A model generated the notes under the pieces. The model did not search any database and had not been told where the DNA came from. It saw nothing but the letters and a program-made list of their open reading frames with translations. The position numbers and the translations under genes were made by a program. From a virus (Duplodnaviria > Heunggongvirae > Uroviricota > Caudoviricetes), in the IMG/VR virus record IMGVR_UViG_2541047902_000001: a stretch of DNA of 36,337 nucleotides; one strand, 5' to 3'. Shown here piece after piece: positions 7,843-29,586 of this stretch; the stretch's first letter is position 1; each line of letters starts with the position of its first letter.

Positions 7843-7912
7843 AAGGATAGTCCTGGTATTGTTCCATCACATCCTGGGGATGCTCTTCGAACTCTTCAAA
7901 TTCTTCTTCCAT
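7826..7912 (-). CDS. Tiny highly acidic ORF (28 aa) translationally coupled to ral
   Basis: MEEEFEEFEEHPQDVMEQYQDYPYDYDY; strong SD AAGGTGA 4 nt upstream; its 3' end overlaps the ral start. Confidence 0.35.
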   Translation of the reverse strand: MEEEFEEFEEHPQDVMEQYQDYPYDYDY

Positions 7913-8055
7913 ATATCACCTTAAATAGTGGATTGCGGTAGTAAAGATTGTGCCTGTCTTTTAACCACATCAGGCTCGGTGGTTCTCGTGTACCCCTACA
8001 GCGAGAAATCGGATAAACTCTATTCACCCCTACAGAGAGCAAAAGAGAAACGCCG

Positions 8056-8637: not shown

Positions 8638-8653
8638 TTAGCAAATGAATTTA

Positions 8654-8965
8654 TCATCTCGCCGTCAGTTGTTTTGATTTCCGGTAGCCTGCCGCGTAAA
8701 TAGCTACGTTTGGCAGGCAAACACTTCCACTGCATTCATCTACTTTCTTGCAGCGAAGGCTTCCGAGTGATATTGCTTTTTCAGAAAGGCTTAACCGCTT
8801 TCTCGGGTCTTCCTGAACAGGTTCCTCACTGTCTGTGCCGAAGATCGAATCGATGATGTTGCAGATGGAATCACGCTCGATGGCCAGCTTTCTGCGCCGC
8901 TCATGACGGCGAGTTTTGGCATTTCCTGCAAATGTTGATTTTCCGTACACGATTACCGTCATGAT
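8654..8965 (-). CDS. N: Antitermination protein N, P22 gene-24 type
   Basis: Arginine-rich motif GNAKTRRHERRRKLAIER (the P22 N boxB-binding peptide) at residues 13-30 when started at MTVIVYGK; SD GAGGA upstream. Confidence 0.85.
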   Translation of the reverse strand: MMTVIVYGKSTFAGNAKTRRHERRRKLAIERDSICNIIDSIFGTDSEEPVQEDPRKRLSLSEKAISLGSLRCKKVDECSGSVCLPNVAIYAAGYRKSKQLTAR

Positions 8966-9080
8966 GTTTTCCTCATGTGAAATGGCTTTGGTGGTGATGC
9001 GCCAGATGCTGATCTTCTGGTTGCTGTCGTTACTGCTGCAATTCACATCACCCCAAACCCATCTCGTTTGGTATCTGTTC

Positions 9081-9116
9081 GCGCTTTGTCAGCGCATCAT
9101 CGAAGTTAAAGAGCCT
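9081..9116 (-). promoter_or_regulatory. nutL: nutL: boxB hairpin GCGCUGACAAAGCGC (9081-9095) and boxA-like GGCUCUUUAAC (9106-9116)
   Basis: Exact match to the P22 boxB-left sequence on the minus strand, positioned between the expected pL and N. Confidence 0.8.
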
Positions 9117-9119
9117 GCC

Positions 9120-9375
9120 AATCTGTTCCGTTTGGCTGCCAGCGTCCTGCTGATGGCGATGATAATGAACCAATAGTTCGATATTATCAAGAACTATAAG
9201 TACGAATTGTTTGTGGTTCATTAACTTAATGAGATATGTTTTTGATATGTAAAGGAATTTATTTTTGTAAAGATTGAAGATTGGTCAGTAGGAGAGAAAG
9301 AATTGTTTGCTGGCGTGTTAGTTCGTGGGTTAGCACATGTGCGGATGTTAAATAAGGTAGACGATCGTGAGGAAA
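9120..9375 (-). promoter_or_regulatory. Predicted pL/OL region (operators not resolved)
   Basis: AT-rich intergenic region upstream of nutL and N on the minus strand; contains GTACGA motifs also present in the OR region. Confidence 0.35.
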
Positions 9376-9400
9376 AGAAAAACCGGCGCTGAGGCCGGGT
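9376..9400 (-). terminator. Intrinsic terminator ending the cI-operon transcript (tImm equivalent)
   Basis: Stem CCGGC/GCCGG with 6-nt loop and T5 run on the minus strand, 6 nt after the stop of the 299-aa gene. Confidence 0.65.
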
Positions 9401-9404
9401 ATAA

Positions 9405-10304
9405 TTATTTGATTATTTCTTTTATAAAGACTTCTTTCGGTTGGTATTTTTTATCTGATGATTTGAGCTGGTACGTTATTGTTATATCAGCACGTACAGC
9501 AAATTTACCTGCAAAATCTGATGGGTTTACGTTGGGGCCAAGAACCATATTTACTCTTCGATCTATTAATCCAGGGATAACAGCAGCCCAACCTTTCTCT
9601 GGATTGTCGAGGTCTAATGCACGGATTTCAACATCAACATCAAAATGATCCTGAGTATATGACTCTGGTGTGAAGACAACTTCAGTTGGGGCTTTTTTAA
9701 TGGTTTCAGCGGGAATGGTCACTGTACCACCCCCTGTACCTATGACCATCGTAGATCCTTCGTCTGCCCTAGCTGGGGCAAGCGTCTTAATGGAACTTTT
9801 GGCAAGAGTCTTCTTATTGGTTACCGTGCTTTCTATGATTGCTTGAAGACGGTCAGGTGAAATATTAGCCTCACCGGCACCAATATTGATGATTGTATTG
9901 TTATTTGCTTCAAAGTGGGAGGTGTTGCTTGGAGCCATAGCCTTAGTTGCTAGAACTAAGCCATATCCAACCAGACCAATAACAACAGCACCAACGAGAG
10001 CGTTTCTCATTTTCCCATTTCCGATCTTTGCATGAGCGCCAGCAAGAAACTTGTCCATTTCTTCTTGGCTACCAAAGAGGAGTTTAATAACAATATCTTC
10101 ATAAAGGCTTCCTGCTTCTAATCGCGCAACATGCACCGATATATCAAGGATATTAGCCCCTGTCAGTTCCTGCAAAACACCTTCTGATTGTTTTGCGATG
10201 GCCTCCCACCCTTGAAGGGAGGTAATCACATCTTTGATGCTTACAGGTTCTTTAGTTGAATAATATATGTTTTCGGTAAAGGTTAAAGATAATTCTTGGG
10301 ACAT
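9405..10304 (-). CDS. Unknown 299-aa single-pass membrane protein in the rexAB position (candidate exclusion / abortive-infection gene)
   Basis: ORF downstream of cI on the same strand; SD GAGGG; central hydrophobic helix (about residues 120-143, NALVGAVVIGLVGYGLVLATKAMA); low GC; followed by a terminator; no family recognised. Confidence 0.7.
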   Translation of the reverse strand: MSQELSLTFTENIYYSTKEPVSIKDVITSLQGWEAIAKQSEGVLQELTGANILDISVHVARLEAGSLYEDIVIKLLFGSQEEMDKFLAGAHAKIGNGKMRNALVGAVVIGLVGYGLVLATKAMAPSNTSHFEANNNTIINIGAGEANISPDRLQAIIESTVTNKKTLAKSSIKTLAPARADEGSTMVIGTGGGTVTIPAETIKKAPTEVVFTPESYTQDHFDVDVEIRALDLDNPEKGWAAVIPGLIDRRVNMVLGPNVNPSDFAGKFAVRADITITYQLKSSDKKYQPKEVFIKEIIK

Positions 10305-10433
10305 CCGAGCCCTCGCTGTTTCTTTCGATTTGCTGTGTTAAGCTAATATTTTAATATCCATGTTTCTGTTTGCTTGCAGTGTGTTTCTCACCACCATCCA
10401 AACGTACTGGTTACTAGCTATGTGATGATGAAG

Positions 10434-11141
10434 TCATGAACTTTTCAGCCATTCCCTGGCCTCGATGTCATCTAGGTGGCGAGATTGCTTCAGAATACCA
10501 GCTACATACTCCACCTTTGCTACTTGATGATAAGGCAACGTTATTGGCCTGTGGTCTTGGTTGATGCTTGTAAATTGGTATTCTCCGTCTCTGTCATAGC
10601 CAAGAACCTTGATCATGTTGTGCCCTTCAATGGTTCTGACAAACACCTCATCACCTGGGAATACTTTGGTGTTAGGCTCAATGAGTACATATTCTCCTGA
10701 TTTTATTCTGGGCCACATGCTGTCTCCTTTTACACGAAGACCAAAGGCATCTGGATCATCGCTATAAATCTTGAGCCACCCATCGCGCTCTTCGGTCATC
10801 TCGATGGCACCATCAACACCAAGAATTGCCTCACCAACCACGCGCACTAACCCTTTTTTTAATTTGCCAACAATTGAAAAAGTATCTTCATCATTCGCTC
10901 CATTTAACGAAGTGCCGTGCTGAAGCCAAACAACATCAACGTTTAGAAATTTCGCAAGCGCATTCATTTTTTCCTGGCGTGGTAAAGACTCAGCATTAAA
11001 CCATTTGCTAACGCCTTTGGACGAAAGAGAAAGGGCACGGGCTATGGCCATTCCCCTACCATGTTCATCAAGACCAGCTTCTTTACAGGCTTGCGCTAGC
11101 CGCTGGGCGAATTCTTTGCGCACTTTTTCATTCTGAACCAT
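10434..11141 (-). CDS. cI: CI-type prophage repressor (HTH plus LexA/S24-like self-cleaving domain), non-lambda immunity
   Basis: 235-aa ORF divergent from cro; C-terminal GDSMWP...K pattern typical of S24 peptidase-fold repressors; sequence unlike lambda CI or P22 C2. Confidence 0.8.
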   Translation of the reverse strand: MVQNEKVRKEFAQRLAQACKEAGLDEHGRGMAIARALSLSSKGVSKWFNAESLPRQEKMNALAKFLNVDVVWLQHGTSLNGANDEDTFSIVGKLKKGLVRVVGEAILGVDGAIEMTEERDGWLKIYSDDPDAFGLRVKGDSMWPRIKSGEYVLIEPNTKVFPGDEVFVRTIEGHNMIKVLGYDRDGEYQFTSINQDHRPITLPYHQVAKVEYVAGILKQSRHLDDIEAREWLKSS

Positions 11142-11219
11142 GAGTACGATACTAAAGCACTTGCAAAAACTTTCAGTTCAACCATAATGCGTACTGAAAG
11201 TACGAAAAAGGACATTCCT
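11142..11219. promoter_or_regulatory. OR/pR/pRM region; candidate pR -35 TTGCAA (11161-11166) and -10 CATAAT (11183-11188); candidate operator CGTACTGAAAGTACG (11190-11204)
   Basis: Divergent cI-cro intergenic region; inverted repeat CGTAC-N5-GTACG read directly from the sequence. Confidence 0.4.
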
Positions 11220-11447
11220 ATGCAAAATCTTGATGAGCCGATTAAAGGTGTCGGCATCCCTGAAGTTGCGAAGGCTTGTGGAGTTAGCGAAAGGGCTGTC
11301 TATAAGTGGCTCAAAAACGGCTTCCTCCCTAAGACTGAGTTTTTTGGGAAAACGAAATACGCATCAAAAATCGAAGAGATTTCTGGTGGCAAATATCAAG
11401 CAAGCGAAATGCTTGAAATAAGCAAAAAGAACCTTCTGGCAGCATAA
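11220..11447 (+). CDS. cro: Cro-like HTH repressor
   Basis: 75-aa ORF from ATG 11220 with SD AAGGA; HTH-like GIPEVAKACGVSERAVYKWLKNG; divergent from cI. Confidence 0.75.
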   Translation: MQNLDEPIKGVGIPEVAKACGVSERAVYKWLKNGFLPKTEFFGKTKYASKIEEISGGKYQASEMLEISKKNLLAA

Positions 11448-11455
11448 GTAACACC

Positions 11456-11489
11456 GCTCTTTATCAATCTGCACCGCCGACAACGCGGT
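11456..11489 (+). promoter_or_regulatory. nutR: nutR: boxA CGCTCTTTA (11456-11464) and boxB hairpin ACCGCCGACAACGCGGT (11473-11489)
   Basis: boxA consensus followed by a stem ACCGC/GCGGT with a GACAA-containing loop; P22-like. Confidence 0.7.
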
Positions 11490-11553
11490 AACTAATTAAG
11501 AACTCATCGAAAGATGCGTATTAGTGATTATTTACCTATGGAAATAGTAAGAA

Positions 11554-11853
11554 ATGGAACAAACAAATTACAGCAAACTATCACAGCGCGACGTTGATCG
11601 CGCAGAAACAGATTTACTTATCAACCTGTCAACGCTTACTCAGCGCGGTCTGGCAAAGATGATTGGCTGTCATGAATCGAAGATAAGCAGAACAGACTGG
11701 AGGTTTATAGCTTCGGTCTTGTGTGCTTTTGGCATGGCATCAGACATCAGTCCGATTAGCAGAGCTTTTAAGTATGCGCTTGATGAAATCACCAATAAAA
11801 AACGCCCGGTGTGCAAGACCGAGCGTTCTGAACAAATCCAGATGGAGTTCTGA
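11554..11853 (+). CDS. cII: CII transcriptional activator
   Basis: 99-aa ORF; C-terminus ...TNKKRPVCKTERSEQIQMEF very close to lambda CII. Confidence 0.85.
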   Translation: MEQTNYSKLSQRDVDRAETDLLINLSTLTQRGLAKMIGCHESKISRTDWRFIASVLCAFGMASDISPISRAFKYALDEITNKKRPVCKTERSEQIQMEF

Positions 11854-11865
11854 GGTCATTACTGG
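11786..11865 (-). ncRNA. oop: oop antisense RNA
   Basis: Minus-strand sequence GTTGATAGATCCAGTAATGACCTCAGAACTCCATCTGGATTTGTTCAGAACGCTCGG...GGGCGTTTTTTAT matches recalled lambda oop; antisense to the cII 3' end with its own terminator. Confidence 0.8.
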
Positions 11866-11885
11866 ATCTATCAACAGGAGTCATT

Positions 11886-12785
11886 ATGACAAATACAGCA
11901 AAAATACTCAACTTCGGCAGAGGTAACTTTGCCGGACAGGAGCGTAATGTGGCAGATCTCGATGATGGTTACGCCAGACTATCAAATATGCTGCTTGAGG
12001 CTTATTCGGGCGCAGATCTGACCAAGCGACAGTTTAAAGTGCTGCTTGCCATTCTGCGTAAAACCTATGGGTGGAATAAACCAATGGACAGAATCACCGA
12101 TTCTCAACTTAGCGAGATTACAAAGTTACCTGTCAAACGGTGCAATGAAGCCAAGTTAGAACTCGTCAGAATGAATATTATCAAGCAGCAAGGCGGCATG
12201 TTTGGACCAAACAAAAACATCTCAGAATGGTGCATCCCTCAAAACGAGGGAAAATCCCCTAAAACGAGGGATAAAACATCCCTCAAATTGGGGGATTGCT
12301 ATCCCTCAAAACAGGGGGACACAAAAGACACTATTACAAAAGAAAAAAGAAAAGATTATTCGTCAGAGAATTCTGGCGAATCCTCTGACCAGCCAGAAAA
12401 CGACCTTTCTGTGGTGAAACCGGATGCTGCAATTCAGAGCGGCAGCAAGTGGGGGACAGCAGAAGACCTGACCGCCGCAGAGTGGATGTTTGACATGGTG
12501 AAGACCATCGCGCCATCAGCCAGAAAACCGAATTTTGCAGGGTGGGCTAACGATATCCGCCTGATGCGTGAACGTGACGGACGTAACCACCGCGACATGT
12601 GCGTGCTGTTCCGCTGGGCATGCCAGGACAACTTCTGGTCCGGTAACGTGCTGAGCCCGGCCAAACTCCGCGATAAGTGGACCCAACTCGAAATCAACCG
12701 TAACAAGCAACAGGCAGGCGTGACAGCCAGCAAACCAAAACTCGACCTGACAAACACAGACTGGATTTACGGGGTGGATCTATGA
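11886..12785 (+). CDS. O: Replication initiator O
   Basis: 299-aa ORF matching lambda O; contains the ori iterons. Confidence 0.97.
   Translation: MTNTAKILNFGRGNFAGQERNVADLDDGYARLSNMLLEAYSGADLTKRQFKVLLAILRKTYGWNKPMDRITDSQLSEITKLPVKRCNEAKLELVRMNIIKQQGGMFGPNKNISEWCIPQNEGKSPKTRDKTSLKLGDCYPSKQGDTKDTITKEKRKDYSSENSGESSDQPENDLSVVKPDAAIQSGSKWGTAEDLTAAEWMFDMVKTIAPSARKPNFAGWANDIRLMRERDGRNHRDMCVLFRWACQDNFWSGNVLSPAKLRDKWTQLEINRNKQQAGVTASKPKLDLTNTDWIYGVDL
12234..12365. repeat. ori: ori-lambda: four iterons (ATCCCTCAAAACGAGGGA-type) followed by an AT-rich region
   Basis: Four about 19-bp direct repeats at 12234-12319 inside O, then an A-rich tract. Confidence 0.9.
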
Positions 12786-13483
12786 AAAACATCGCCGCAC
12801 AGATGGTTAACTTTGACCGTGAGCAGATGCGTCGGATCGCCAACAACATGCCGGAACAGTACGACGAAAAGCCGCAGGTACAGCAGGTAGCGCAGATCAT
12901 CAACGGTGTGTTCAGCCAGTTACTGGCAACTTTCCCGGCGAGCCTGGCTAACCGTGACCAGAACGAAGTGAACGAAATCCGTCGCCAGTGGGTTCTGGCT
13001 TTTCGGGAAAACGGGATCACCACGATGGAACAGGTTAACGCAGGAATGCGCGTAGCCCGTCGGCAGAATCGACCATTTCTGCCATCACCCGGGCAGTTTG
13101 TTGCATGGTGCCGGGAAGAAGCATCCGTTACCGCCGGACTGCCAAACGTCAGCGAGCTGGTTGATATGGTTTACGAGTATTGCCGGAAGCGAGGCCTGTA
13201 TCCGGATGCGGAGTCTTATCCGTGGAAATCAAACGCGCATTACTGGTTGGTTACCAACTTGTACCAGAACATGCGGGCCAATGCGCTGACTGACGCGGAA
13301 TTACGGCGCAAGGCTGCCGATGAACTGACCTGTATGACAGCGCGAATTAACCGTGGTGAGACGATACCTGAACCAGTAAAACAACTTCCTGTTATGGGCG
13401 GTAGACCTCTAAATCGTGCACAGGCTCTGGCGAAGATCGCAGAAATTAAAGCTAAGTTTGGACTGAAAGGATCGATGAAATAG
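12782..13483 (+). CDS. P: Replication protein P (DnaB helicase loader)
   Basis: 233-aa ORF matching lambda P. Confidence 0.97.
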   Translation: MKNIAAQMVNFDREQMRRIANNMPEQYDEKPQVQQVAQIINGVFSQLLATFPASLANRDQNEVNEIRRQWVLAFRENGITTMEQVNAGMRVARRQNRPFLPSPGQFVAWCREEASVTAGLPNVSELVDMVYEYCRKRGLYPDAESYPWKSNAHYWLVTNLYQNMRANALTDAELRRKAADELTCMTARINRGETIPEPVKQLPVMGGRPLNRAQALAKIAEIKAKFGLKGSMK

Positions 13484-13722
13484 AGCTAAAATATTAGCTT
13501 TAAAATAAAGTATATCTAGCGAATATAATCCAGGACTGGTTGTAATGCCCGCAATAATTGATTGCGTGACTAATAAAATTTTTCTTCCATTGTAATCATT
13601 TAACCATAAAGTTTATGTGGATATTTTATTTGTGTGTTGATTTTTTTGTAACGTTCTGTATATTTCGCACCTCTTGTCATACCAGTTATTTTTTTCATTA
13701 TATTCATAACGTTGATTGAACT

Positions 13723-16700
13723 ATGACCACTGTGAATAAAAAGTTAAAAAAAACTGCATCTGGCGCGATTACATGGTCAGTAATTGTTACCCAGATATTA
13801 TCTCCAGTTTCTCTTTCTTTGATTCCGGCAAACAGTTTTGCATCGTCTGATAATAAAGATGTTACGCAAATTTATGCTAGCGATGAGCGTGCAAATAAAG
13901 TGGCCTCATTTGCAGTAAGTGCAGGTCAGAGTCTGGCGAATAATAATGCAAGTAGTTTTGCTGTAAATACTTTATCAACTCAGGCGACAAAAGAGGTCGT
14001 CGATTGGTTGCAACAATATGGCAATGCGCGCATCAAGCTTAATGTCGATAATTCTTTTTCCTTGAAGGATTCATCATTCGACTTTTTATATCCATGGCTG
14101 GATACTCAGGATTATGTGCTATTCAGTCAAACATCACTACATCGTACTGATGACCGTAATCAGACCAATATTGGTTTGGGGATTCGTCATTTCACTCCTG
14201 ATAATGCAATGTTGGGTGCGAATGTTTTCTACGATTATGATTTAAGTCGCAGCCACTCTCGCGCAGGTTTTGGGGTTGAGTACTGGAGAGATTATTTCAG
14301 GCTTGGTGTAAATACCTATTTTGGTTTATCTGACTGGAAGGACAGTCGGGATATTGATGATTATCTGGAAAGACCCGCAAATGGCTGGGATTTTTCTGCT
14401 GAAGGATGGCTACCTGCTTATCCGCAATTAGGGGCATCTATTCAGTTTGAAAAATATTATGGTAAAAATGTCGGATTATTTGGAAGCGATAATCTGCAGG
14501 AAAACCCTTACGCAGTTACTGGGGGAATTTCTTATACACCAGTTCCTCTGATTAAGTTTTCTGCACAGCATAAGCAAGGACAGAGCAACGTTCACGATAC
14601 AACCTTTGGTGTTGAGTTTAATTACCGCCCAGGCGTTTCCCTTGCTGAACAGCTTAGCAGTGACAATGTTGCAGTTATGCGAGAAGTCCAGAACCGGCGT
14701 TATGATTTTGTTGAACGAAATAACAACATTGTTCTGGAGTACAAGAAGAAGCATGCACTGAAAATCAGCTTACCAGAGTCTGTTCAGGGGGATGGCGAAT
14801 CAATCATCCCTGTAACACTGACAATCAACAATGCCAGTGGTGGTATCAAGTCTGTACAGTGGAATGATAGTGTATTCACTGCGGCTGGCGGTAAGATCAG
14901 TGGAAATGGCACATCATGGCAGGTCACTTTACCGGCTTATAAAAGCGAAGGTGTAAATTCGTGGAATGTTGGAGCCACGGTCCAGGATAATAGAGGCAAC
15001 GTTTCCAACTATGCGGTGATGAATATTAGCGTTATTAATAGTGGTGTCTCGACAGCGGATTCTTCTTTTATGTTGGATGGAGATTCATCTCCGACGATCT
15101 CTGCTGATGGTCAATCCACTCATCCAATAGTATTAAGCCTGAAAGACAGTAACGGTAAGGCATTAACCGGACTGGCTGATGACATTGAAATGTCAGTGGA
15201 ATTTACTGCGGATAGCAATAGTGCTCGACAGCGTGAAACGGTAACTGCCCCGTCATTAGGCGCGGTAGAGGAAATCTCTGCTGGTGTATATCGCTCTGTT
15301 CTGACTGCTGGTTCGCAGGCTGGCACAGTACGTGTAACAGCAAAAGTTCAGGGAAAAACCTTTACTTTGAATATTAAGCAGGCAGCCGTTATTGATAGTG
15401 ATGTCTCGACAGCGGATTCTTCTTTTACGTTGGATGGTGATTCGTCTCCGACGATCTCTGCTGATGGTCAATCCACTCATCCAATAGTATTAAGCCTGAA
15501 AGACAGTAACGGTAAGGCATTAACCGGACTGGCTGATGACATTGAAATGTCAGTGGAATTTACTGCGGATAGCAATAGTGCTCGACAGCGTGAAACGGTA
15601 ACTGCCCCGTCATTAGGCGCGGTAGAGGAAATCTCTGCTGGTGTATATCGCTCTGTTCTGACTGCTGGTTCGCAGGCTGGTACGGTACGTGTAACTGCAA
15701 AAGTAATGGATAAAACATTTACTCTCAGTATTAAGCAAACAGCAGCAACAGAACCTGATTCTGAGGTCAGTGCTGTTTTAACCGCTGCACCAGCAGAACA
15801 GGTAGTTGGTTACAATATCAATCTACAACTGGCAGTGAAGGATTCACAAGGAAATGCAATCACTGGTGATAACACTCTGAGCTTTTATGCTCTTAACCAG
15901 GCAGAAGGAGTCGAGTTTGGGGCTGTAACGGAAAAAGACGGTGTCTATAGCGCGACAGTAACTTCAAAACGAGCTGGTAAGATTCGGATCGGTGTTAAAT
16001 CGGGTAGTCACAATTTCTCAGGTATTGAGAAAGAAATCTCCTTTATTGAAGATCGAACACAGTTCGCATTCTCTCGTATTGAAGCCAGTAAAAATAATGC
16101 ATTGGCTGACGGCAAACAACAGAATACGGTGACTTTAAGCCTTGCAGATCGTTTCGGCAATGTTGTGCCCGGTTATGCTGTTACGCTGTCCTTACCTGCG
16201 GGGGTAACTCAAGTTGGTGGTGAACATGCTGTGTCAACTGACGAAAACGGTAATGCTGTTTTTGCGTTAATAAGCTCCACTCCGGGTTCTTACGTGATTA
16301 AAGCTCATGCTGGTTCTCAGATGTCTACTGAGTTAACAGTAACCTTTGCATCAAATATGATCGGAGCTTCACTGTCACTGACGCCTGGAAACAGTAGCTT
16401 AATTTCCAATATTCCTGCTAATGGTAAGGATGCTGCGGTATTGAATGTGCAACTGACAAATACGAATGCGTCGGTCAATGGACAGAAGATTCAGCTCATC
16501 ACCTCATCTGAAAGATTGTCTGTACCGACAAATATCGTGACTGATTCAACAGGGCATGTTTCCGTACCACTTACAACGGTGAGAGCTGGTGAGTATACGG
16601 TGGCTGCACGAGTGACTGACGGTTCCCATAGTGTGGAGTCTGGCAGCGTTAAGTTAACTTTTGTACCAGATGCTGCTTCCGCAGAACTTACTATGAGTAC

Positions 16701-17631
16701 ATCAAAACAGCAGATTGTGGCCGATGGTAGTGAAAGTGCAACAGTGGACATTCAGTTGGTTGATGCCAATAACAATGCGTTTACAGGCGATGTGGATTTA
16801 ACGGTTACACCATCGACGGGAGCATCATTGACCAGTAGTAAACTGCAGTTGGATGCTCATGGACAGGCAACAACGCAGTTCACAGCATCGAAATCAGGCC
16901 AGTACACAATTCAGGCTGAGTATGTTCTAGATGGGAAACGTATAACCGCAAGCAAAAATATTGATGCCGTGACGGATGTGAAGGAGGCTGTGTTGGAGAT
17001 CACATCATCTGCATCTTCGGCTGTAGTGAGCGATACCAACAATCTGATATTTACGTTACTGTTGAAAAGTACGTCAGGCGAAGTATTAAGTGGTCGAGTA
17101 TTGAATATCAAGGCATCTGGGCCGTCCAAATATGGTGCGTTGGTGGTTGATAAAACCACTGTAACGACTGATGAGTATGGTCTGGCTACGGTAAGCGTAC
17201 ATGGTCGAACGGCTGGTTCGTATAAATTAACGGCGACCTTAGATGAACTTGGCAGTGATGTTAGTGAGGTGAAGTCATTCTCTCTGTATGCTGATGAGGC
17301 AAATGGAGTATTGACACTGCATAAAGATGGAGGCTATGACACAGATGATGGTACTCCAGTGGGGGTTTATGCCCGATTTGTTGACCATTTCGGCAATCCG
17401 TTATCTGGTACGGTTGAGTTTTCTGCTGGTAGTGAAGATAGTCCAAACTCTCAACGGGTTAAAATGGAGCCTGCTACAGTAACGTTACACTGGACAGGTA
17501 ATGCAGCCTCGGAGTTCAGCACCTATGAAAGCGGTTATCACTGGATTAAGGCCAAAATAACGAACAGCAAAAATACATATGAGAAAACAATAAGGACTTA
17601 TGTTGTAAAGCTCCCTGAAAAGGATAGTTAA
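13723..17631 (+). CDS. Invasin/intimin-family inverse autotransporter adhesin with bacterial Ig-like repeats (cargo in the ren slot)
   Basis: 1302-aa ORF; signal-like N-terminus; beta-barrel motifs typical of invasin/intimin beta-domains; long run of Ig-like repeats; AT-rich upstream region; own terminator. Confidence 0.8.
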   Translation: MTTVNKKLKKTASGAITWSVIVTQILSPVSLSLIPANSFASSDNKDVTQIYASDERANKVASFAVSAGQSLANNNASSFAVNTLSTQATKEVVDWLQQYGNARIKLNVDNSFSLKDSSFDFLYPWLDTQDYVLFSQTSLHRTDDRNQTNIGLGIRHFTPDNAMLGANVFYDYDLSRSHSRAGFGVEYWRDYFRLGVNTYFGLSDWKDSRDIDDYLERPANGWDFSAEGWLPAYPQLGASIQFEKYYGKNVGLFGSDNLQENPYAVTGGISYTPVPLIKFSAQHKQGQSNVHDTTFGVEFNYRPGVSLAEQLSSDNVAVMREVQNRRYDFVERNNNIVLEYKKKHALKISLPESVQGDGESIIPVTLTINNASGGIKSVQWNDSVFTAAGGKISGNGTSWQVTLPAYKSEGVNSWNVGATVQDNRGNVSNYAVMNISVINSGVSTADSSFMLDGDSSPTISADGQSTHPIVLSLKDSNGKALTGLADDIEMSVEFTADSNSARQRETVTAPSLGAVEEISAGVYRSVLTAGSQAGTVRVTAKVQGKTFTLNIKQAAVIDSDVSTADSSFTLDGDSSPTISADGQSTHPIVLSLKDSNGKALTGLADDIEMSVEFTADSNSARQRETVTAPSLGAVEEISAGVYRSVLTAGSQAGTVRVTAKVMDKTFTLSIKQTAATEPDSEVSAVLTAAPAEQVVGYNINLQLAVKDSQGNAITGDNTLSFYALNQAEGVEFGAVTEKDGVYSATVTSKRAGKIRIGVKSGSHNFSGIEKEISFIEDRTQFAFSRIEASKNNALADGKQQNTVTLSLADRFGNVVPGYAVTLSLPAGVTQVGGEHAVSTDENGNAVFALISSTPGSYVIKAHAGSQMSTELTVTFASNMIGASLSLTPGNSSLISNIPANGKDAAVLNVQLTNTNASVNGQKIQLITSSERLSVPTNIVTDSTGHVSVPLTTVRAGEYTVAARVTDGSHSVESGSVKLTFVPDAASAELTMSTSKQQIVADGSESATVDIQLVDANNNAFTGDVDLTVTPSTGASLTSSKLQLDAHGQATTQFTASKSGQYTIQAEYVLDGKRITASKNIDAVTDVKEAVLEITSSASSAVVSDTNNLIFTLLLKSTSGEVLSGRVLNIKASGPSKYGALVVDKTTVTTDEYGLATVSVHGRTAGSYKLTATLDELGSDVSEVKSFSLYADEANGVLTLHKDGGYDTDDGTPVGVYARFVDHFGNPLSGTVEFSAGSEDSPNSQRVKMEPATVTLHWTGNAASEFSTYESGYHWIKAKITNSKNTYEKTIRTYVVKLPEKDS
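15040..15753. repeat. Tandem duplication (2 x 357 bp) encoding two nearly identical 119-aa Ig-like domains inside the adhesin gene
   Basis: About 300 bp repeated almost perfectly with a 357-bp period (15046 vs 15403). Confidence 0.9.
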
Positions 17632-17643
17632 CAAAACAGAATA

Positions 17644-17670
17644 GGGAGGGCTAAGCCCTCCCACTTTTTA
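17644..17670 (+). terminator. Intrinsic terminator after the adhesin gene
   Basis: GGGAGGGC-TAA-GCCCTCCC stem followed by a T-run. Confidence 0.7.
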
Positions 17671-17831
17671 ATTGAGACGGACTGTTTCTTAAATTCACTT
17701 ACGTTAGATATGAACTGGTTATTTTTTATAACAATAAAAGACTTTTGATTTTTGAATATCAGTAAGTAATAATGATTTACGTCGACAGACTGAACATCTG
17801 TTGGTGACTTCTGCGCTAAACGGGGACGTTT

Positions 17832-17933
17832 ATGCGCACATACAATCTAAACTCTCTTCTCTCTTCACAGATGCAGAAATGCACCTGCGATTCTTTGCAT
17901 CCAACGTTTGACCTCTGCGGAGGTGAAGCGTGA
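17832..17933 (+). CDS. ylcH: Small Cys-containing protein (DLP12 YlcH-like, 33 aa)
   Basis: [33 protein letters not shown]; stop overlaps the ybcN start; same position and length as DLP12 ylcH. Confidence 0.45.
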
Positions 17934-18385
17934 ACCTCCCACAAGATGGCATCAAATTACATCGCGGTAACTTCACCGCTATCGGTCGGCAGATCCAGCC
18001 TTATCTGGAGGACGGCAAATGCTTTCGCATGGTGCTTAAACCGTGGCGCGAGAGACGCAGTCTTTCCCAGAATGCACTCAGCCACATGTGGTACAGCGAA
18101 ATCAGTGAATACCTCATCAGCAGGGGTAAAACGTTCGCCACTCCAGCTTGGGTAAAAGATGCTCTCAAACACACATATCTCGGTTATGAAACCAAAGACC
18201 TGGTTGATGTCGTAACCGGTGATATCACCACTATCCAGTCGTTACGCCATACCTCCGATCTTGATACCGGAGAGATGTATGTCTTCCTGTGTAAGGTTGA
18301 AGCCTGGGCGGTGAATATTGGCTGCCACCTGACTATTCCGCAGAGCTGCGAGTTCCAGCTGCTCCGCGACAAGCAGGAGGCGTAA
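17930..18385 (+). CDS. ybcN: YbcN-family protein in the NinB position of the nin region
   Basis: 151-aa ORF matching recalled DLP12 YbcN; SD GGAGGTG; GTG start. Confidence 0.8.
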
Positions 18386-18555
18386 TGGCTACACCGCTTA
18401 TTCGTGTCATGAACGGACACATCTACAGAGTATCAAATCGTCGTAAGCGTAAGCCTGAGCTGAAGCCATCCGAAATACCAACACTGCTCGGATATACCGC
18501 TAGCCTGGTTGATAAAAAATGGTTGCGACTGGCAGCAAGGAGGAATCATGGCTGA
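18385..18555 (+). CDS. ninE: NinE
   Basis: 56-aa [59 protein letters not shown]; start overlaps the ybcN stop (TAATG). Confidence 0.75.
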   Translation: MATPLIRVMNGHIYRVSNRRKRKPELKPSEIPTLLGYTASLVDKKWLRLAARRNHG

Positions 18556-18838
18556 TTTGAGAAAAGCAGCGCGTGGTCGGGAATGCCAGGTAAGAATCCC
18601 TGGCGTATGTAATGGCAATTCTGAAACGTCTGTACTGGCACATATCCGGCTGGCTGGATTGTGCGGTACCGGTATCAAACCGCCAGACCTGATTGCCACC
18701 ATTGCATGTTCTGCCTGCCACGACGAAATCGACCGCCGCACACATTTTGTCGATGCTGCATATGCAAAAGAATGCGCGCTGGAAGGTATGGCGAGAACAC
18801 AGGTTATCTGGCTGAAAGAGGGGGTTATTAAGGCGTGA
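18548..18838 (+). CDS. ybcO: YbcO (DUF1364, putative nuclease)
   Basis: 96-aa frame [23 protein letters not shown]... with conserved Cys residues; start overlaps the ninE end. Confidence 0.8.
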
Positions 18839-19198
18839 ATACCTACAGTATCACATTACCCTGGCCTCCGAGCAATAATCGCTATTACCGCCATAATCGC
18901 GGGCGCACGCACGTCAGTGCAGAGGGGGCAGGCATACCGCGATAACGTCGCCCGAATCATTAAAAACGCAATGCTGGATATCGGCCTGGCTATGCCTGTG
19001 AAAATCCGCATTGAGTGCCACATGCCGGATCGCCGTAGCCGTGACCTGGATAATCTGCAAAAAGCCGCTTTTGACGCACTCACTAAAGCAGGTTTCTGGC
19101 TGGATGATGCTCAGGTCGTTGATTACCGCGTTGTGAAGATGCCTGTTACCAAAGGTGGGAGGCTGGAACTGACCATCACCGAAATGGGGAATGAATGA
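18835..19198 (+). pseudogene. rusA: rusA (Holliday-junction resolvase) disrupted by a +1 frameshift in a G-run
   Basis: N-terminal RusA sequence [31 protein letters not shown] in frame 1 stops at 18943-18945; the rest ([16 protein letters not shown]...TITEMGNE) continues in frame 2; shift at GAGGGGG (18922-18928). Confidence 0.8.
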
Positions 19199-19335
19199 TG
19201 TTTGAGTTTAATATGGCAGAACTTCTTCGCCACCGCTGGGGGCGTCTGCGCTTATATCGTTTCCCCGGCTCTGTTTTGACCGATTACCGAATACTGAAGA
19301 ATTACGCCAAAACACTGACAGGAGCAGGAGTATGA
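19195..19335 (+). CDS. ylcG: YlcG (small DLP12-type protein, 46 aa)
   Basis: [46 protein letters not shown]; start overlaps the rusA stop. Confidence 0.6.
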
Positions 19336-19420
19336 AGTCAGAGATAACAATCAACTAATACTGTTTTGTTGATTTTTGCTTGTAATTGGCGTTCTGGTCT
19401 GAGTTTTGTGGAGTAAGTTG

Positions 19421-19798
19421 ATGCGTGATATTCAGATGGTTCTTGAGCGTTGGGGAGCGTGGGCGGCTAATAATCATGAAGATGTGACCTGGTCGTCCAT
19501 TGCCGCCGGTTTTAAGGGATTAATTCCTTCAAAAGTAAAATCTCGCCCGCAATGTTGTGACGATGACGCGATGATCATTTGCGGGTGCATGGCCCGTCTG
19601 AAAAAGAACAACAGCGATTTGCATGATTTATTGGTGGACTATTATGTCGGCGGCATGACTTTTATGGCGCTTGCACGTAAGCATGGGCGATCTGATTGTT
19701 GGGTTGGCAGGATGCTCCAGAAAGCTGAGGGCGTAGTGGAGGGTATGCTGATGGTGTTGGATCTCCGATTGGAGATGGATGCTGATTGTTCGAAATAA
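19421..19798 (+). CDS. Q: Late-gene antiterminator Q, phage-82/DLP12 QuuD type
   Basis: 125-aa frame from ATG 19421 ([24 protein letters not shown]...) with Cys-rich putative zinc-binding region. Confidence 0.85.
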
Positions 19799-19898
19799 TT
19801 AAAGGAAAAGTTGCTGTCTGATTCTCATTAGTCTAACATTTTAAATGTTGGAATCGCAACGTAGTTATTATCATATAACAGCTTGTTTCCTGATTTAG
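19799..19898 (+). promoter_or_regulatory. Predicted late promoter pR' / Q-utilisation region
   Basis: Position immediately downstream of Q and upstream of a short-transcript terminator; -35/-10 elements not confidently resolved. Confidence 0.35.
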
Positions 19899-19926
19899 CC
19901 AGCCTCCCCAAAGGCTGGTTTTTTTC
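19899..19926 (+). terminator. Intrinsic terminator (tR'-like) downstream of Q
   Basis: Stem CCAGCCT/AGGCTGG with 6-nt loop followed by T7. Confidence 0.75.
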
Positions 19927-19953
19927 TAATAAGTATTATTTCGGGTAGGGATT

Positions 19954-20478
19954 TTATTGTTTAACCCATAATAATTCATTGACATTGAATCCCAACTTTT
20001 GAGCGGTTCGCACATAGTCTGCTTTTACTTTATCTGGAATAGTTGGGGTCCTTGCCAGAATCCATAGGTATTCTCTGTTCGGACCACTGACAAGAGCATA
20101 CTTATACTCATCATCCAGTTTGATTACATTATAGCCACCATAGAAGGGGCCAAAAAACGAAACCTTCAACGCTGCAGTTTTAGTATCTCCAGTAAAGTAT
20201 GCTTTACCTTCGCTCTCGCTCCATTTATTTTTCGTTGGATCGTATCCACGGTTAAGTACACGAATCCCTCCGTCGTTCCGTTTTCCATAAGTAGCGCTGA
20301 CCTGTTCCAGACCACGTTCGAACCGGTTCTCGAGGCGAGCTATTTCATACCACTTTCCGAGGTAGCGGTTGGCGTCAAAATTTGTAATCGGCTGCACACC
20401 TTTAGGTGGTGTCGGGGCCTTACATGCTATAAGAGTGAAAGAGAGTGCAATGCCAGTCAACACAGGCCATAACTTCAT
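19954..20478 (-). CDS. Bacterial lipocalin (Blc-like outer-membrane lipoprotein)
   Basis: 174-aa ORF with lipobox LIAC and conserved lipocalin motifs (NFDANRYLGKWYEIARLENRFERG..., FFGPFYGGYNVI); opposite orientation to the late operon. Confidence 0.8.
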   Translation of the reverse strand: MKLWPVLTGIALSFTLIACKAPTPPKGVQPITNFDANRYLGKWYEIARLENRFERGLEQVSATYGKRNDGGIRVLNRGYDPTKNKWSESEGKAYFTGDTKTAALKVSFFGPFYGGYNVIKLDDEYKYALVSGPNREYLWILARTPTIPDKVKADYVRTAQKLGFNVNELLWVKQ

Positions 20479-20670
20479 AATAAATCCTGTACTTTTGATA
20501 GTTGAGAGTAAGTATGAAAGATAGATGATTACGACCGATCACTTAAAGAACTTTCATACTATATTAGGAATAGTCCATAACAGAAAAATTGTCAGTGATG
20601 ACGCCAGAAAGGCAATTTATTCCGTGCACTACACAGTTTATGTGTTAATGAATTAGTCAAGGGGGAGGAT

Positions 20671-21630
20671 ATGATAAAAAAACCTGTGATTGGAATCAGC
20701 GGTTGTCTGGCCGGTTCTGCTGTTCGTTTTGATGGTGGTCACAAAAGAGCTGACTTTTTAATGGACAAATTAGTGGAATGGGTAACATTCAGACCAGTAT
20801 GTCCGGAAATGGCTATAGGGCTGCCAGTTCCGCGTCCTGCTCTACGTCTTGTGCGCTCGACGCAAGGAAATATACGGATGTGTTTCAGCCACGACCAGAA
20901 TGAGGATGTGACAGAGAGAATGACAGAGTTTAGTCGTTCTTATATGGACAAATTAAAGGATGTATCGGGGTTTGTGGTTTGTGCTAAATCTCCCAGCTGT
21001 GGCATGGAGCGCGTGCGTGTCTATGATGAAAATGGTAATCGAGGTCGTAAAGATGGAGTGGGACTATTTACGAGCACTTTGATGGAAAAGTTTTCCTGGC
21101 TACCGGTTGAAGAGGATGGGCGATTACATGATCCAGTGCTTCGTGAGAATTTTGTTGAAAGAGTTTTTGCTTTGCATGAGCTCAATCACCTTTACAAGGA
21201 GAAATTATCAAGAAGAGAGTTATTAGCTTTTCATAGTCGTTATAAGCTTCAGTTGTTGGCGCATAGTCAGGCAGGCTATAAAGATATGGGACCATTTGTG
21301 GCTGCAATACACGAGTGGGCGGACCTTGAATCATACTTTGAGGTGTATCGTGATAAGCTGATGGCGATTCTCAGAAAACCTGCATCACGTAAAAATCACA
21401 CGAATGTGATGATGCATATACAGGGGTATTTTAGTAACTACTTAAGTACACGCCAGCGTAAAGAGTTGAGCGAGGTTATACTTAACTATCGTTCTGGCAC
21501 ATTACCTCTTCTTGCGCCGTTGACTCTGCTGAAGCATTATCTGGGTGAGTATCCTAATGATTACTTGCTTACACAGAATTACTTCGATCCCTATCCGGAC
21601 GAACTGGCTCTAAGACTGATGGTAAATTAA
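20671..21630 (+). CDS. DUF523/DUF1722-family protein (YbgA/TudS-like, Cys-rich)
   Basis: 319-aa ORF; N-terminal Cys positions GISGCLAG, RPVCPEM, CAKSPSCGMERV resemble the DUF523 fold; C-terminal extension. Confidence 0.55.
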   Translation: MIKKPVIGISGCLAGSAVRFDGGHKRADFLMDKLVEWVTFRPVCPEMAIGLPVPRPALRLVRSTQGNIRMCFSHDQNEDVTERMTEFSRSYMDKLKDVSGFVVCAKSPSCGMERVRVYDENGNRGRKDGVGLFTSTLMEKFSWLPVEEDGRLHDPVLRENFVERVFALHELNHLYKEKLSRRELLAFHSRYKLQLLAHSQAGYKDMGPFVAAIHEWADLESYFEVYRDKLMAILRKPASRKNHTNVMMHIQGYFSNYLSTRQRKELSEVILNYRSGTLPLLAPLTLLKHYLGEYPNDYLLTQNYFDPYPDELALRLMVN

Positions 21631-22124
21631 TTGTATGCGATATCATCCAAAAGGATGAGTTCCTGCATGCAGGATATTTACAATCGTAAAAACTACACTA
21701 TGATACCCAGAGTGTCAGTTTGTATAAAAACTCTGTTTACGCTGAAGAAACCATTGAGATGCAACTTAAAGTTGGTAAACATGCCAGTCAAAATATATAA
21801 TATTATGATTCCACGCAGCTATATATAATATAACAGATTGGTTTAATAATTTGTCTTTGTGAGTTAAATACATAATTTTATACTTGTGATGCAATGAGAT
21901 TTTCCTTATTGTTGAACTGGCGAATATTGATTTTCCACCTATACTTACTTGGTGTAACCCCAATGATATCAGGTGGATAATATGCCATACATATGTTCTA
22001 TCATTTTGGTGTTGAACTCGTTTGATGTCCGAATTGGTAAAGAAGATATTTTATTTAAAAAAGGAAGTGCTGTTCTCATTGATTAAAATTTAAAAGATTT
22101 TTTTCATCAAATATAGATCATGCA

Positions 22125-22706
22125 ATGATCGTAGATGTTGAAGAGAAAACAGTTAATGATTTCTTTAAAAGCAACACACTCTCACCTTTTTCTGTAAGAA
22201 GGTTTTATCCGGCATACTTGATGGTGGAATGTGAAGATTTTTCATTGTTAAAGAACTTGATTGCATGCTTGAATTGTGATGGCAGAACTGTGGATTTTGT
22301 TAGAAATCAAATATCACTTGCATGTCTTGCTATCTTATCTTCAGAGAAAATAGTGCAAAGTTTTTTATTTGGATGTCTTAATAGTTTAGGAAGTAAAGTT
22401 AAGGCTATTATTCACACGGATATATCTGCAGCATGGAGACTTTGTGATATATCTTCAAGACTGTATCTGAGTGAAAGTCTGTTAAAAAGAAAATTAAAGC
22501 ACGAAGGCTTATCATTTAGTAAGTTAATTCTTGAAGAGCGAATGGTGATGGCGGAAAGGTTATTAAGCTACAATTTATATTCTGTTGGAAAAGTTGCTGA
22601 GATATGCGGTTATGAAAACACGTCATATTTTGTAAGTGTTTTCAGAAGATATTTTTGTGTTCCTCCCCATCAATATTCATCAAGATTTTTTTTAGAAAAG
22701 ACATGA
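22125..22706 (+). CDS. AraC-family transcriptional regulator (C-terminal HTH), probably the downstream part of a frameshifted gene
   Basis: 193-aa ORF with AraC-type HTH; very AT-rich; a 34-codon ORF with strong SD at 21982 ends at 22086 in another frame. Confidence 0.6.
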   Translation: MIVDVEEKTVNDFFKSNTLSPFSVRRFYPAYLMVECEDFSLLKNLIACLNCDGRTVDFVRNQISLACLAILSSEKIVQSFLFGCLNSLGSKVKAIIHTDISAAWRLCDISSRLYLSESLLKRKLKHEGLSFSKLILEERMVMAERLLSYNLYSVGKVAEICGYENTSYFVSVFRRYFCVPPHQYSSRFFLEKT

Positions 22707-22899
22707 TGTAACGTGATGCGTTTTAATGATTTTGTAATTTTCGTATTTGATAATTGTATGATGCTTTCAGCTACGCCAGAATAATCGCTGGCGTTTTTCT
22801 TTTTGAATAGATGTTCAAGCCTTACGCTAATGTAACTTCTATACCTTTCCTCTTCGTTCCGAACCGTGTACACCATCCGTTATTTGCGGAGGTGAGGCT

Positions 22900-23115
22900 A
22901 TGAAATCCATGGATAAGTTAACAACGGGCATTGCCTACGGCACCTCCGCAGGCAGTGCTGGCTACTGGTTTTTACAGCTGCTCGATAAAGTCACGCCCTC
23001 ACAGTGGGCAGCAATAGGTGTGCTGGGTAGCTTGGTATTTGGCCTGCTGACGTACCTGACAAACCTTTATTTCAAGATTAAAGAAGATAAGCGCAAGGCT
23101 GCGAGAGGTGAATAA
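22900..23115 (+). CDS. S: Class II holin (pinholin), phage-21 S21 type with dual-start motif
   Basis: 71-aa [32 protein letters not shown]... matching recalled S21; two TM segments. Confidence 0.9.
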
Positions 23116-23612
23116 TGCCTCCATCATTACGAAAAGCCGTTGCTGCTGCTATTGGTGGCGGAGCAATTGCTATAGCATCAGTGTTAATCACTGGTCCAGG
23201 TGGTAACGATGGTCTGGAGGGTGTCAGCTACATACCATACAAAGATATTGTTGGTGTATGGACTGTATGTCACGGGCATACAGGAAAAGACATCATGCTC
23301 GGTAAAACGTATACCAAAGCAGAATGCAAAGCACTCTTGAATAAAGACCTTGCCACTGTCGCCAGACAAATTAACCCGTACATCAAAGTCGATATACCGG
23401 AAACAACGCGCGGCGCTCTTTACTCATTCGTTTACAACGTGGGTGCTGGCAATTTCAGAACATCGACGCTTCTTCGCAAAATAAACCAGGGCGATATCAA
23501 AGGCGCATGTGATCAGTTACGTCGCTGGACATATGCTGGCGGTAAGCAATGGAAAGGTCTCATGACTCGTCGTGAGATTGAGCGTGAAATCTGTTTGTGG
23601 GGTCAGCAATGA
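23115..23612 (+). CDS. R: SAR endolysin (lysozyme), phage-21 R21 type
   Basis: 165-aa ORF with N-terminal signal-anchor-release segment ([20 protein letters not shown]) and lysozyme domain; matches recalled R21. Confidence 0.9.
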
Positions 23613-24070
23613 ACAGAGTAACCGCGATTATCTCCGCTCTGGTTATCTGCATCATCGTCTGCCTGTCATGGGCTGTTAATCATTACCGTGATAACGCCAT
23701 TACCTACAAAGCCCAGCGCGACAAAAATGCCAGAGAACTGAAGCTGGCGAACGCGGCAATTACTGACATGCAGATGCGTCAGCGTGATGTTGCTGCGCTC
23801 GATGCAAAATACACGAAGGAGTTAGCTGATGCGAAAGCTGAAAATGATGCTCTGCGTGATGATGTTGCCGCTGGTCGTCGTCGGTTGCACATCAAAGCAG
23901 TCTGTCAGTCAGTGCGTGAAGCCACCACCGCCTCCGGCGTGGATAATGCAGCCTCCCCCCGACTGGCAGACACCGCTGAACGGGATTATTTCACCCTCAG
24001 AGAGAGGCTGATCACGATGCAAAAACAACTGGAAGGAACCCAGAAGTATATTAATGAGCAGTGCAGATAG
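23609..24070 (+). CDS. Rz: Rz i-spanin
   Basis: 153-aa frame from [23 protein letters not shown]...; start overlaps the R stop. Confidence 0.9.
23829..24011 (+). CDS. Rz1: Rz1 o-spanin lipoprotein, embedded in the +1 frame of Rz
   Basis: 60-aa ORF with lipobox VVGC and proline-rich region [15 protein letters not shown]. Confidence 0.9.
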
Positions 24071-24101
24071 AGCTGCCCATATCGATGGGCAACTCATGCA
24101 A

Positions 24102-24395
24102 TTATTGTGAGCAATAGACACGCGCTTCCAGCGGAGTATAAATGCCTAAAGTAATAAAACCGAGCAATCCATTTACGAATGTTTGCTGGGTTTCTGTTTT
24201 AACAACATTTTCTGCGCCGCCACAAATTTTGGCTGCATCAACAGTTTTCTCCTGTCCAATTCCCGAAACGAAGAAATGATGGGTGATGGTTTCCTTTGGT
24301 GTTACTGCTGTCGGTTTGTTTCCAACAGTAAACGTCTGTTGAGCACATCCTGTAATAAGCATTGCCAGAGCGGCAGAAAACAACATTTTTTTCAT
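24102..24395 (-). CDS. bor: Bor lipoprotein (serum-resistance)
   Basis: 97-aa frame from MKKMLFSAALAMLITGC... matching lambda Bor. Confidence 0.9.
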   Translation of the reverse strand: MKKMLFSAALAMLITGCAQQTFTVGNKPTAVTPKETITHHFFVSGIGQEKTVDAAKICGGAENVVKTETQQTFVNGLLGFITLGIYTPLEARVYCSQ

Positions 24396-24757
24396 CTTAT
24401 TATCCTGCATTGTTAAAAACGGCAGAATCCTATGTGACAACAATTAAACGATAGTTAAATGGATTGATGAAAATTAAAACTATATAGGTGTACGCTCAGA
24501 CTATTGGAGGAAGTTGGGGACACTCAGAATCCTGTGGAATGAAATAAACCGGTCTATCCGTCTATTACCCTTTTAGCTGCGCTGTATCGTCGCCGTATTC
24601 CCGCATTAACCATGACCGTAGCCCGACGGGGAATTCCTTCTGCGTGAGTGTGCGGGAACAATCAAAAACGATGCACACCGGGTTTTACTGTGCTGACATA
24701 CGCAGGGTTACCCTCATAGTCGCTTTTCCGGTGCGATGGTGGAAGAAACCGGGATGT

Positions 24758-24952
24758 TCATCCATCATCACTTTGGATTGATGTATATGCTCTCTTTTCT
24801 GACGTTAGTCTCCGACGGCAGGCTTCAATGACCCAGGCTGAGAAATTCCCAGACCCTTTTTGCTCAAGAGCGATGTTAATTTGTTCAATCATTTGGTTAG
24901 GAAAGCGGATGTTGCGGGTTGTTGTTCTGCGGGTTCTGTTCTTAGTTGACAT
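24758..24952 (-). CDS. Small hypothetical protein (possible ribbon-helix-helix fold) conserved at the lambda right end
   Basis: 64-aa basic ORF; flanking sequence matches recalled lambda DNA near cos. Confidence 0.45.
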   Translation of the reverse strand: MSTKNRTRRTTTRNIRFPNQMIEQINIALEQKGSGNFSAWVIEACRRRLTSEKRAYTSIQSDDG

Positions 24953-25151
24953 GAGGTTGCCCCGTATTCAGTGTCGCTGATTTGTATTGTCTGAAGTTGT
25001 TTTTACGTTAAGTTGATGCAGATCAATTAATACGATACCTGCGTCATAATTGATTATTTGACGTGGTTTGATGGCGTAGATGCACGTTGTGATATGTAGA
25101 TGATAATTATTATCATTTTTCGGGTCCTTTCCGGCGATCCGACAGGTTACG

Positions 25152-25163
25152 GGGCGGCGACCT
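25152..25163. other. cos: cosN cohesive-end site (GGGCGGCGACCT)
   Basis: Exact lambda 12-nt cohesive-end sequence followed by CGCGGGTTTTCGCTATTTATGAAAATTTTC. Confidence 0.9.
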
Positions 25164-25339
25164 CGCGGGTTTTCGCTATTTATGAAAATTTTCTGGGGAA
25201 AATCATGTCGGTACTTCTCGAACATAACTATTTGTTTTTTCTAATATCGAATCCGTAAAAGGTCCGACATGAAAACGCCTAAAAAAGTCATTTTCGGGCA
25301 CTTTCATGTCGGCCCCTGTATTTATTGTGAGACTGTTTC
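25164..25339 (+). promoter_or_regulatory. cosB region (small-terminase binding sites), diverged from lambda
   Basis: Segment between cosN and the Nu1 start; sequence after position about 25196 differs from recalled lambda cosB. Confidence 0.5.
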
Positions 25340-25859
25340 ATGAAGGTTAATAAAAAGAAACTTGCCGAAATTTTCAACGTGGATCCGCGAACGATTGAAC
25401 GCTGGCAGTCTCAGGGACTCCCTTGCGTCTCCGGAGGTGGTAAGGGCGTTGAATCTGTATTTGATACCGCCATGGCAATTCAGTGGTATGCGCAGAGGGA
25501 AGCTGATATCGAAAATGAAAAACTCCGTAAAGAGGTTGAGGATTACAGGGCTGCCAGTGAGGCAGATCTCCAGCCTGGGACTATTGAGTACGAACGCCAT
25601 CGACTTACGCGTGCGCAGGCCGACGCACAGGAGCTGAAGAATGCCAGAGACTCCGCAGAGGTGGTGGAAACCGCATTCTGTACTTTCGTGCTGTCACGGA
25701 TCGCAGGTGAAATTGCCAGTATTCTTGACGGGATCCCTCTCTCGGTACAGCGGCGTTTTCCGGAACTGGAAAACCGACATGTTGATTTCCTGAAACGGGA
25801 TATCATCAAAGCCATGAACAAAGCAGCCGCGCTGGATGAACTGATACCGGGGTTGCTGA

Positions 25860-25885
<26 letters not shown>
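25340..25885 (+). CDS. nu1: Terminase small subunit Nu1 (phage-21-like N-terminal DNA-binding domain, lambda-like C-terminus)
   Basis: 181-aa ORF; N-terminus [29 protein letters not shown] resembles phage 21 gp1; residues after about 75 match lambda Nu1. Confidence 0.9.

Positions 25886-29566
<3,681 letters not shown>

Positions 29567-29586
<20 letters not shown>

Follow-up and report, generated by a model that had tools for sequence, protein, structure and literature searches.

The window analysed here, the whole 36,337-nucleotide stretch, is a lambda-like prophage integrated beside ybhC, as read from the PGAP annotation of E. coli TUM2330, whose DNA is identical to the window over 11000-24000. 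The left part of the prophage carries int, xis, exo, bet, gam, kil, cIII, ral, sieB, an S24-family repressor gene, a Cro-like HTH gene, cII, O and P. The middle holds the gene for a 1302-aa inverse autotransporter, followed by ybcN, ninE, ybcO, rusA, ylcG and Q, and the right part consists of a lipocalin gene, a YbgA-family gene, an HTH gene, lysis genes, iss, and the terminase, head and tail genes. The context of rusA is that of a lambdoid nin region (ybcN/ninB-ninE-ybcO-rusA-ylcG-Q), in which the following genes are of importance for the present analysis:

17930-18385, plus strand: ybcN, a DNA base-flipping protein of the Orf/NinB family; chimeric, with the left crossover (below) inside it
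18509-18838, plus strand: ybcO, a putative nuclease (DUF1364), upstream of rusA and inside the recombinant patch (below)
18835-19198, plus strand: rusA pseudogene, 364 bp vs 363 bp in intact copies; PGAP calls the identical sequence "frameshifted"
19195-19335, plus strand: ylcG, downstream of rusA, with its ATG overlapping the rusA stop
19421-19798, plus strand: late antiterminator of the Q family, holding the right edge (19549) of the minimal patch

These genes are tightly packed: the GTG start of rusA overlaps the stop of ybcO (GTGA), and its own stop overlaps the start of ylcG (ATGA, 19195-19198).

Several other features of the prophage were observed. The prophage is integrated directly beside ybhC (window 1-2489), with its integrase gene at 1419-2489 on the minus strand; the left end of the window is host DNA, identical in strains 144 and TUM2330. 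The inverse-autotransporter (intimin/invasin-like) gene at 13723-17631 on the plus strand is cargo between P and ybcN. Within it, two directly repeated copies of about 350 bp (15030-15380 and 15387-15737, 95.5% identical) code for duplicated domains. The interval from Q to the lysis cassette holds a Blc-like lipocalin gene (19954-20478, minus strand) and the YbgA-family gene (20671-21630, plus strand); K-12 DLP12 has the porin gene nmpC in this interval, and the lipocalin/YbgA pair seems to be an alternative cargo cassette in that position. The HTH-domain gene at 21982-22706 (plus strand) is a second frameshifted gene, called "frameshifted" by PGAP in TUM2330, strain 144 and CNR65D6. Compared to the intact copy of strain 2452, the window is missing one T near 22097 and one A near 22695, which leaves a 193-aa ORF at 22125-22706. 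A serum-survival lipoprotein gene of the iss/bor family (24102-24395, minus strand) lies downstream of the lysis cassette in the TUM2330 annotation.

The rusA reading frame

The rusA region of the window can be broken down into the following parts:

18835-18945, plus strand: 5' ORF of 36 aa with a GTG start, encoding RusA residues 1-31, five out-of-frame residues (AGIPR) and a TAA stop at 18943-18945
18924-18928, plus strand: run of five Gs (G5) with a one-base insertion, from alignments; intact alleles have four (G4)
18917-19198, plus strand: 3' ORF of 93 aa in the next frame, encoding RusA residues 32-120 from 18929
19037-19039, plus strand: codon 68, AGC (Ser) aligned with CGC (Arg) in K-12, in the Arg-rich DNA-binding loop 65-69

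The preliminary description of this DNA had proposed a rusA gene with a single-G (+1) insertion in a G run, in which the N-terminal frame stops at 18943-18945 and the remaining 93 or so residues continue in the next frame from 18917. The ORF list agrees with this arrangement, and the insertion itself is confirmed by the ORFs, by alignment with a phage rusA, and by the 120-codon ORF that is restored once the extra base is removed. A single uninterrupted rusA ORF of about 120 codons is absent from the window, as the frame is broken at the G run. The first 31 residues of the 5' ORF are those of K-12 RusA, none of the catalytic residues of RusA are encoded in it, and by itself it has no match in Pfam or to the RusA family model. 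The 3' ORF encodes the Arg-rich loop along with R69, D70, D72, K76, and D91, and matches the Pfam RusA profile (PF05866) with E=4e-17 over positions 25-124 of 124. Against the NCBIfam RusA model NF007305 it scores 199 bits as encoded (profile positions 30-120), under the 200-bit cutoff of that model, and a full-length RusA family match above the curated cutoff is not reached by the window gene as encoded. In the characterized protein, the Arg-rich loop residues 65-69 bind DNA, with R69 as a DNA-binding residue, while D70, D72, K76, and D91 are catalytic (PMC1636454).

Alignment with the intact 363-bp rusA of phage PhiR34_1 revealed exactly one gap, a single base within the G run, which reads GAGGGGGCAG in the window vs GAGGGGCAG in the phage gene; the intact sequence that had been predicted from the window alone matches the latter. 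With one G deleted, the window has a 120-codon rusA ORF that scores 276 bits against NF007305 over positions 1-120, and the resulting protein matches PDB 1q8r with E=2e-79. The preliminary description had also pointed to DLP12 rusA as a comparison, and here the G-deleted gene is that of K-12 but for three nucleotides and one residue (R68S). It agrees at every nucleotide with the intact rusA of E. coli O7:K1 CE10 (WP_001099715.1), and the extra G is therefore the only lesion. Over the 1.7 kb of ybcM-ybcN-ninE-ybcO-rusA, CE10 is separated from the G5 haplotype by a single SNP and the indel, which makes the insertion a recent one. We considered whether R68S might be a second inactivating lesion or a sign of decay, and rejected this because the intact CE10 allele encodes Ser68 as well. 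The substitution is thus older than the frameshift, and is by this alignment a pre-existing polymorphism rather than evidence of decay. By standard decoding, the window gene cannot yield a full-length RusA Holliday-junction resolvase.

A donor-type patch and its probable origin

To locate the allele in other genomes, we used an 81-bp probe across the G run, which tells G5 from G4, in complete RefSeq E. coli assemblies only; all counts of complete genomes are lower bounds with that scope. The probe had an exact G5 match in 58 complete E. coli genome records. The other rusA-bearing records, about 2,600, are below 99% identity to the probe, and all those among the matches listed align over 80 bases, corresponding to G4. 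In IMG/VR, a G5 40-mer occurs in three contigs and the G4 39-mer in 38, and the best 30 of 47 phage records with rusA all have 363-bp copies (G4). The G5 allele is always found on one haplotype.

The prophage of the window occupies the same ybhC site in 53 complete genomes. Among the best 25 of these 53, the segment corresponding to 11000-24000 has its 13,001-bp (G5) version only in TUM2330 and KKa019, while the other 23 have 13,000 bp at 99.6% identity, and the rusA matches of these genomes lie within the segment; by sequence comparison, the usual form of the ybhC-site prophage is one that carries an intact rusA. Strain 144 has the same prophage with an intact rusA (WP_001099655.1), and its comparison with the window is highly structured: there are no differences at 1-18258, 50 differences (including the extra G) at 18259-19549, and again none at 19550-33406. 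When compared to the DLP12-type element of strain 2452, the window shows no differences across 18055-20289 (2.2 kb, 100% identity). These comparisons delimit the following:

18259-19549, unstranded: minimal recombinant patch, with 50 consecutive informative sites, including the extra G, that are donor-type, agreeing with the emrE-ybcKLM (DLP12-type) prophage and not with the sister copies of the window prophage
18055-20289, unstranded: maximal recombinant patch, with no differences from the donor-type DNA of strains 2452 and CNR65D6

The left crossover interval is 18055-18258, inside ybcN, for which TUM2330, strain 144, and strain 2452 have three different protein accessions. The right interval, 19550-20289, covers the 3' part of Q and extends into the lipocalin gene.

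Both prophage types are found together in CNR65D6, and FFFEB2 is among the matches for both. In CNR65D6, prophage 1 is of the ybhC-site type with an intact rusA, and prophage 2 carries O, P, ren, emrE, ylcJ, ybcK, ybcL, ybcM, ybcN, ninE, ybcO, a frameshifted rusA, ylcG, and Q. In a three-way comparison of the window with these two prophages, 17 informative sites at 17786-18054 are of the sister (ybhC-site) type, the 50 sites at 18259-19549 match the second (emrE-ybcKLM) prophage, and at least 15 sites at 20290-24016 are sister-type again. The window therefore has a contiguous donor-type block with recipient-type flanks on both sides, the pattern characteristically left by a double crossover or gene conversion.

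Some further observations concern these elements and the distal part of the window. The emrE-ybcK-ybcL-ybcM element of CNR65D6 (NZ_OU701452.1, 1919571-1935271) looks more fully prophage-like than the K-12 remnant, with genes from a repressor, YdaT, O, P, and ren through to terminase. From Q to the lysis genes, the two CNR65D6 prophages are nearly identical over a long stretch, which provides ample homology for further exchange or chromosomal rearrangement. Compared to strain 144, the tail genes of the window have a cluster of 32 substitutions at 33407-34701 and, beyond it, a 3-bp indel at 35025-35027. From 34241 on, the window also departs from TUM2330, with strong divergence after 35340. This mosaic of the tail genes (33407-34701 and 34241-36337) suggests further recombinational exchange of tail modules.

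Taken together, we consider it highly probable that the window rusA is a genuine heritable frameshift pseudogene that was imported by homologous recombination from a DLP12-type prophage already carrying G5. The insertion that turned G4 into G5 would have come first, in a lambdoid prophage of the emrE-ybcK-ybcL-ybcM (DLP12-type) kind. A segment of 1.3-2.2 kb, from ybcN to Q/lipocalin, would then have been replaced in the lineage of the ybhC-site prophage that includes the window, TUM2330, and KKa019, through a double crossover or else through gene conversion. A single rusA-like place is present in TUM2330, meaning that the donor prophage is now absent from this strain, and the exchange may therefore date to an earlier host or to phage growth. 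Exchanges of this kind have been described experimentally: homologous recombination that depends on Red or RecA lets lambda and phi80 acquire DNA of DLP12, Rac, and Qin, and the substrates tested with phi80 included the Dlp12 nin region (PMC3945230).

A single exchange in an unrooted comparison gives no direction by itself, and the patch might instead have originated in the ybhC-site prophage and been copied later into prophages of the emrE-ybcKLM type. We regard this reversed polarity as unlikely. The G5 allele is found in the emrE-ybcKLM context in 55 complete genomes and in all three of the IMG/VR G5 contigs, which match that prophage at 99.97% or more over about 9 kb, but in the ybhC-site context it is found in just two complete genomes (TUM2330 and KKa019, among the best 25 of 53) and the window. 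In addition, the closest G4 haplotype, that of CE10, has the DLP12-type context with ybcM-ybcN upstream, and is the one that differs by one SNP over 1.7 kb. The most parsimonious reading of these counts and of the nearest intact haplotype, in an unrooted comparison, is that the insertion would have arisen in a DLP12-type prophage and subsequently been copied to the ybhC-site prophage.

Other readings of the extra G

The preliminary description had made the loss of the resolvase conditional on the extra base not being a homopolymer sequencing error. It is true that G runs are error-prone on some platforms and that the lesion is one base in a homopolymer, but an error of sequencing or assembly, with the real rusA intact, is very unlikely given the recurrence of G5 and its linkage to one haplotype. 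The same allele is present in 58 independently assembled complete genomes and three IMG/VR contigs, and in the window prophage it is tied to 49 other patch-specific sites. Random errors would be expected to scatter over haplotypes, but the other matches listed span 80 bases (G4). Recurrence in many independent assemblies, always on one haplotype, marks the extra G as an inherited allele and not an artefact of the homopolymer. The 364-bp window rusA is also 100% identical in many complete E. coli genomes; for strains 2452, TUM2330, and CNR65D6, the independent RefSeq/PGAP call is "crossover junction endodeoxyribonuclease RusA, frameshifted". This exact G5 allele thus already figures among the annotated pseudogenes of RefSeq, and it is an ordinary one. 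A literature search for reports of an E. coli rusA frameshift allele found nothing relevant.

It could also be asked whether G5 is a functional element, either a programmed +1 frameshift at GGG-G or a site of reversible G-tract slippage that throttles a harmful resolvase. Under such a scheme, low-efficiency recoding or slippage would keep RusA nearly off, and the spread of the allele would reflect selection for silencing it. A tRNA-Gly could re-pair perfectly on GGGGG after a +1 slip, and the full downstream rusA frame is still open and undegraded. Even so, we give this idea very little credence, as the shift site is restricted to one near-clonal haplotype, G4 is found in the divergent rusA alleles of the roughly 2,600 other genome records and in the best 30 of 47 phage records, and the 0-frame A-site codon after GGG is GCA rather than a stop. 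By inspection we recognised no stimulator of +1 frameshifting, the only purine-rich element being the slippery run itself. Two features of prfB-type +1 frameshifting are lacking, namely a shift site conserved across diverged homologues and, as judged by inspection, a slow or stop A-site codon with a spaced upstream Shine-Dalgarno sequence. Five Gs make a short run for phase variation, and no G6 variants or mixed states were present among the best matches. A +1 slip at G5 may rarely yield full-length RusA in trace amounts.

Finally, short-homopolymer slippage is a common source of 1-bp indels, but an independent origin of the frameshift by replication slippage in the window prophage itself is extremely unlikely, as the G sits among 50 contiguous donor-type sites with flanks that do not differ from the sister prophage, and the window matches donor-type DNA at 100% over 2.2 kb.

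Related systems and consequences of the lesion

The closest characterized relative of the window gene is rusA of K-12 DLP12 (b0550; PDB 1Q8R and 2H8C), with which it shares the gene order ybcN-ninE-ybcO-rusA-ylcG-Q. The window copy differs in its +1 G, which makes it untranslatable as a single 120-aa protein, and in its location, as K-12 DLP12 is an argU-linked remnant while the window rusA belongs to a lambda-like prophage next to ybhC that seems to be complete. The frameshifted rusA genes annotated in E. coli 2452, TUM2330, and CNR65D6 are 100% identical over 364 bp and have the same G5. With respect to this allele, TUM2330 and KKa019 show no difference from the window, and in the 55 other genomes it is found in a prophage of the emrE-ybcK-ybcL-ybcM type. 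The intact rusA of CE10, with G4, has an open 120-codon frame and a DLP12-type context, unlike the window. The exchanges of lambda with DLP12, Rac, and Qin reported by De Paepe et al. in 2014 (PMC3945230) were likewise patchwise, with high-identity flanks serving as homology arms. The exchange in the window differs in that it is natural, and in that what it brought in was a recombination gene in defective form, not a selectable marker or a novel function.

The RusA activity of the window allele, which includes symmetric, Mg2+-dependent Holliday-junction cleavage and ruv suppression, should be lost as predicted from its broken frame. Inspection showed no Shine-Dalgarno-like sequence before the GTG at 18917 or before the next in-frame ATG (Met46). 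We also considered the 93-aa product of the 3' ORF as a functional protein in its own right, and rejected it by inference because no Shine-Dalgarno-like sequence was seen and residues 1-31 are missing from it; the S13 region and the 15-28 loop of RusA lie in this N-terminal segment (PMC1636454). Because the ylcG ATG overlaps the rusA stop, translational coupling of rusA to ylcG is probably lost as well.

We expect the lesion to be near-neutral with little phenotype, because rusA is quiescent in DLP12 and, as a rule, silent in cryptic prophages, the gene is a dispensable accessory of the nin region, and hosts normally have RuvABC. The quiescence in DLP12 holds unless IS2 or IS10 activates the gene (PMC1636454), and it is the nin region as such that has been reported as non-essential (PMC3945230). 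The loss of rusA may reduce phage recombination through Holliday junctions, to judge by the analogous case of lambda rap. Rap (NinG) is an analogous junction endonuclease of the nin region that occupies the same place in the genome and has a similar accessory function when phages recombine, and we know of no sequence relationship between it and RusA. Rap is dispensable for growth, and when rap is deleted, recombination with Dlp12 by the RecA pathway drops about 500-fold and recombination by the Red pathway 3-6-fold (PMC3945230). For the hosts, we infer that strains with only a G5 rusA should give no rus-type suppressors of ruv mutations.

The G5 defect is a stable lineage marker, and its arrival in the window by recombination is a tidy instance of lambdoid mosaicism rather than a new kind of event. 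It provides a clean natural case in which a short homologous exchange passed a gene that was already broken from one prophage to another, lambdoid one, and it follows that mosaic recombination can spread decay as well as new functions.
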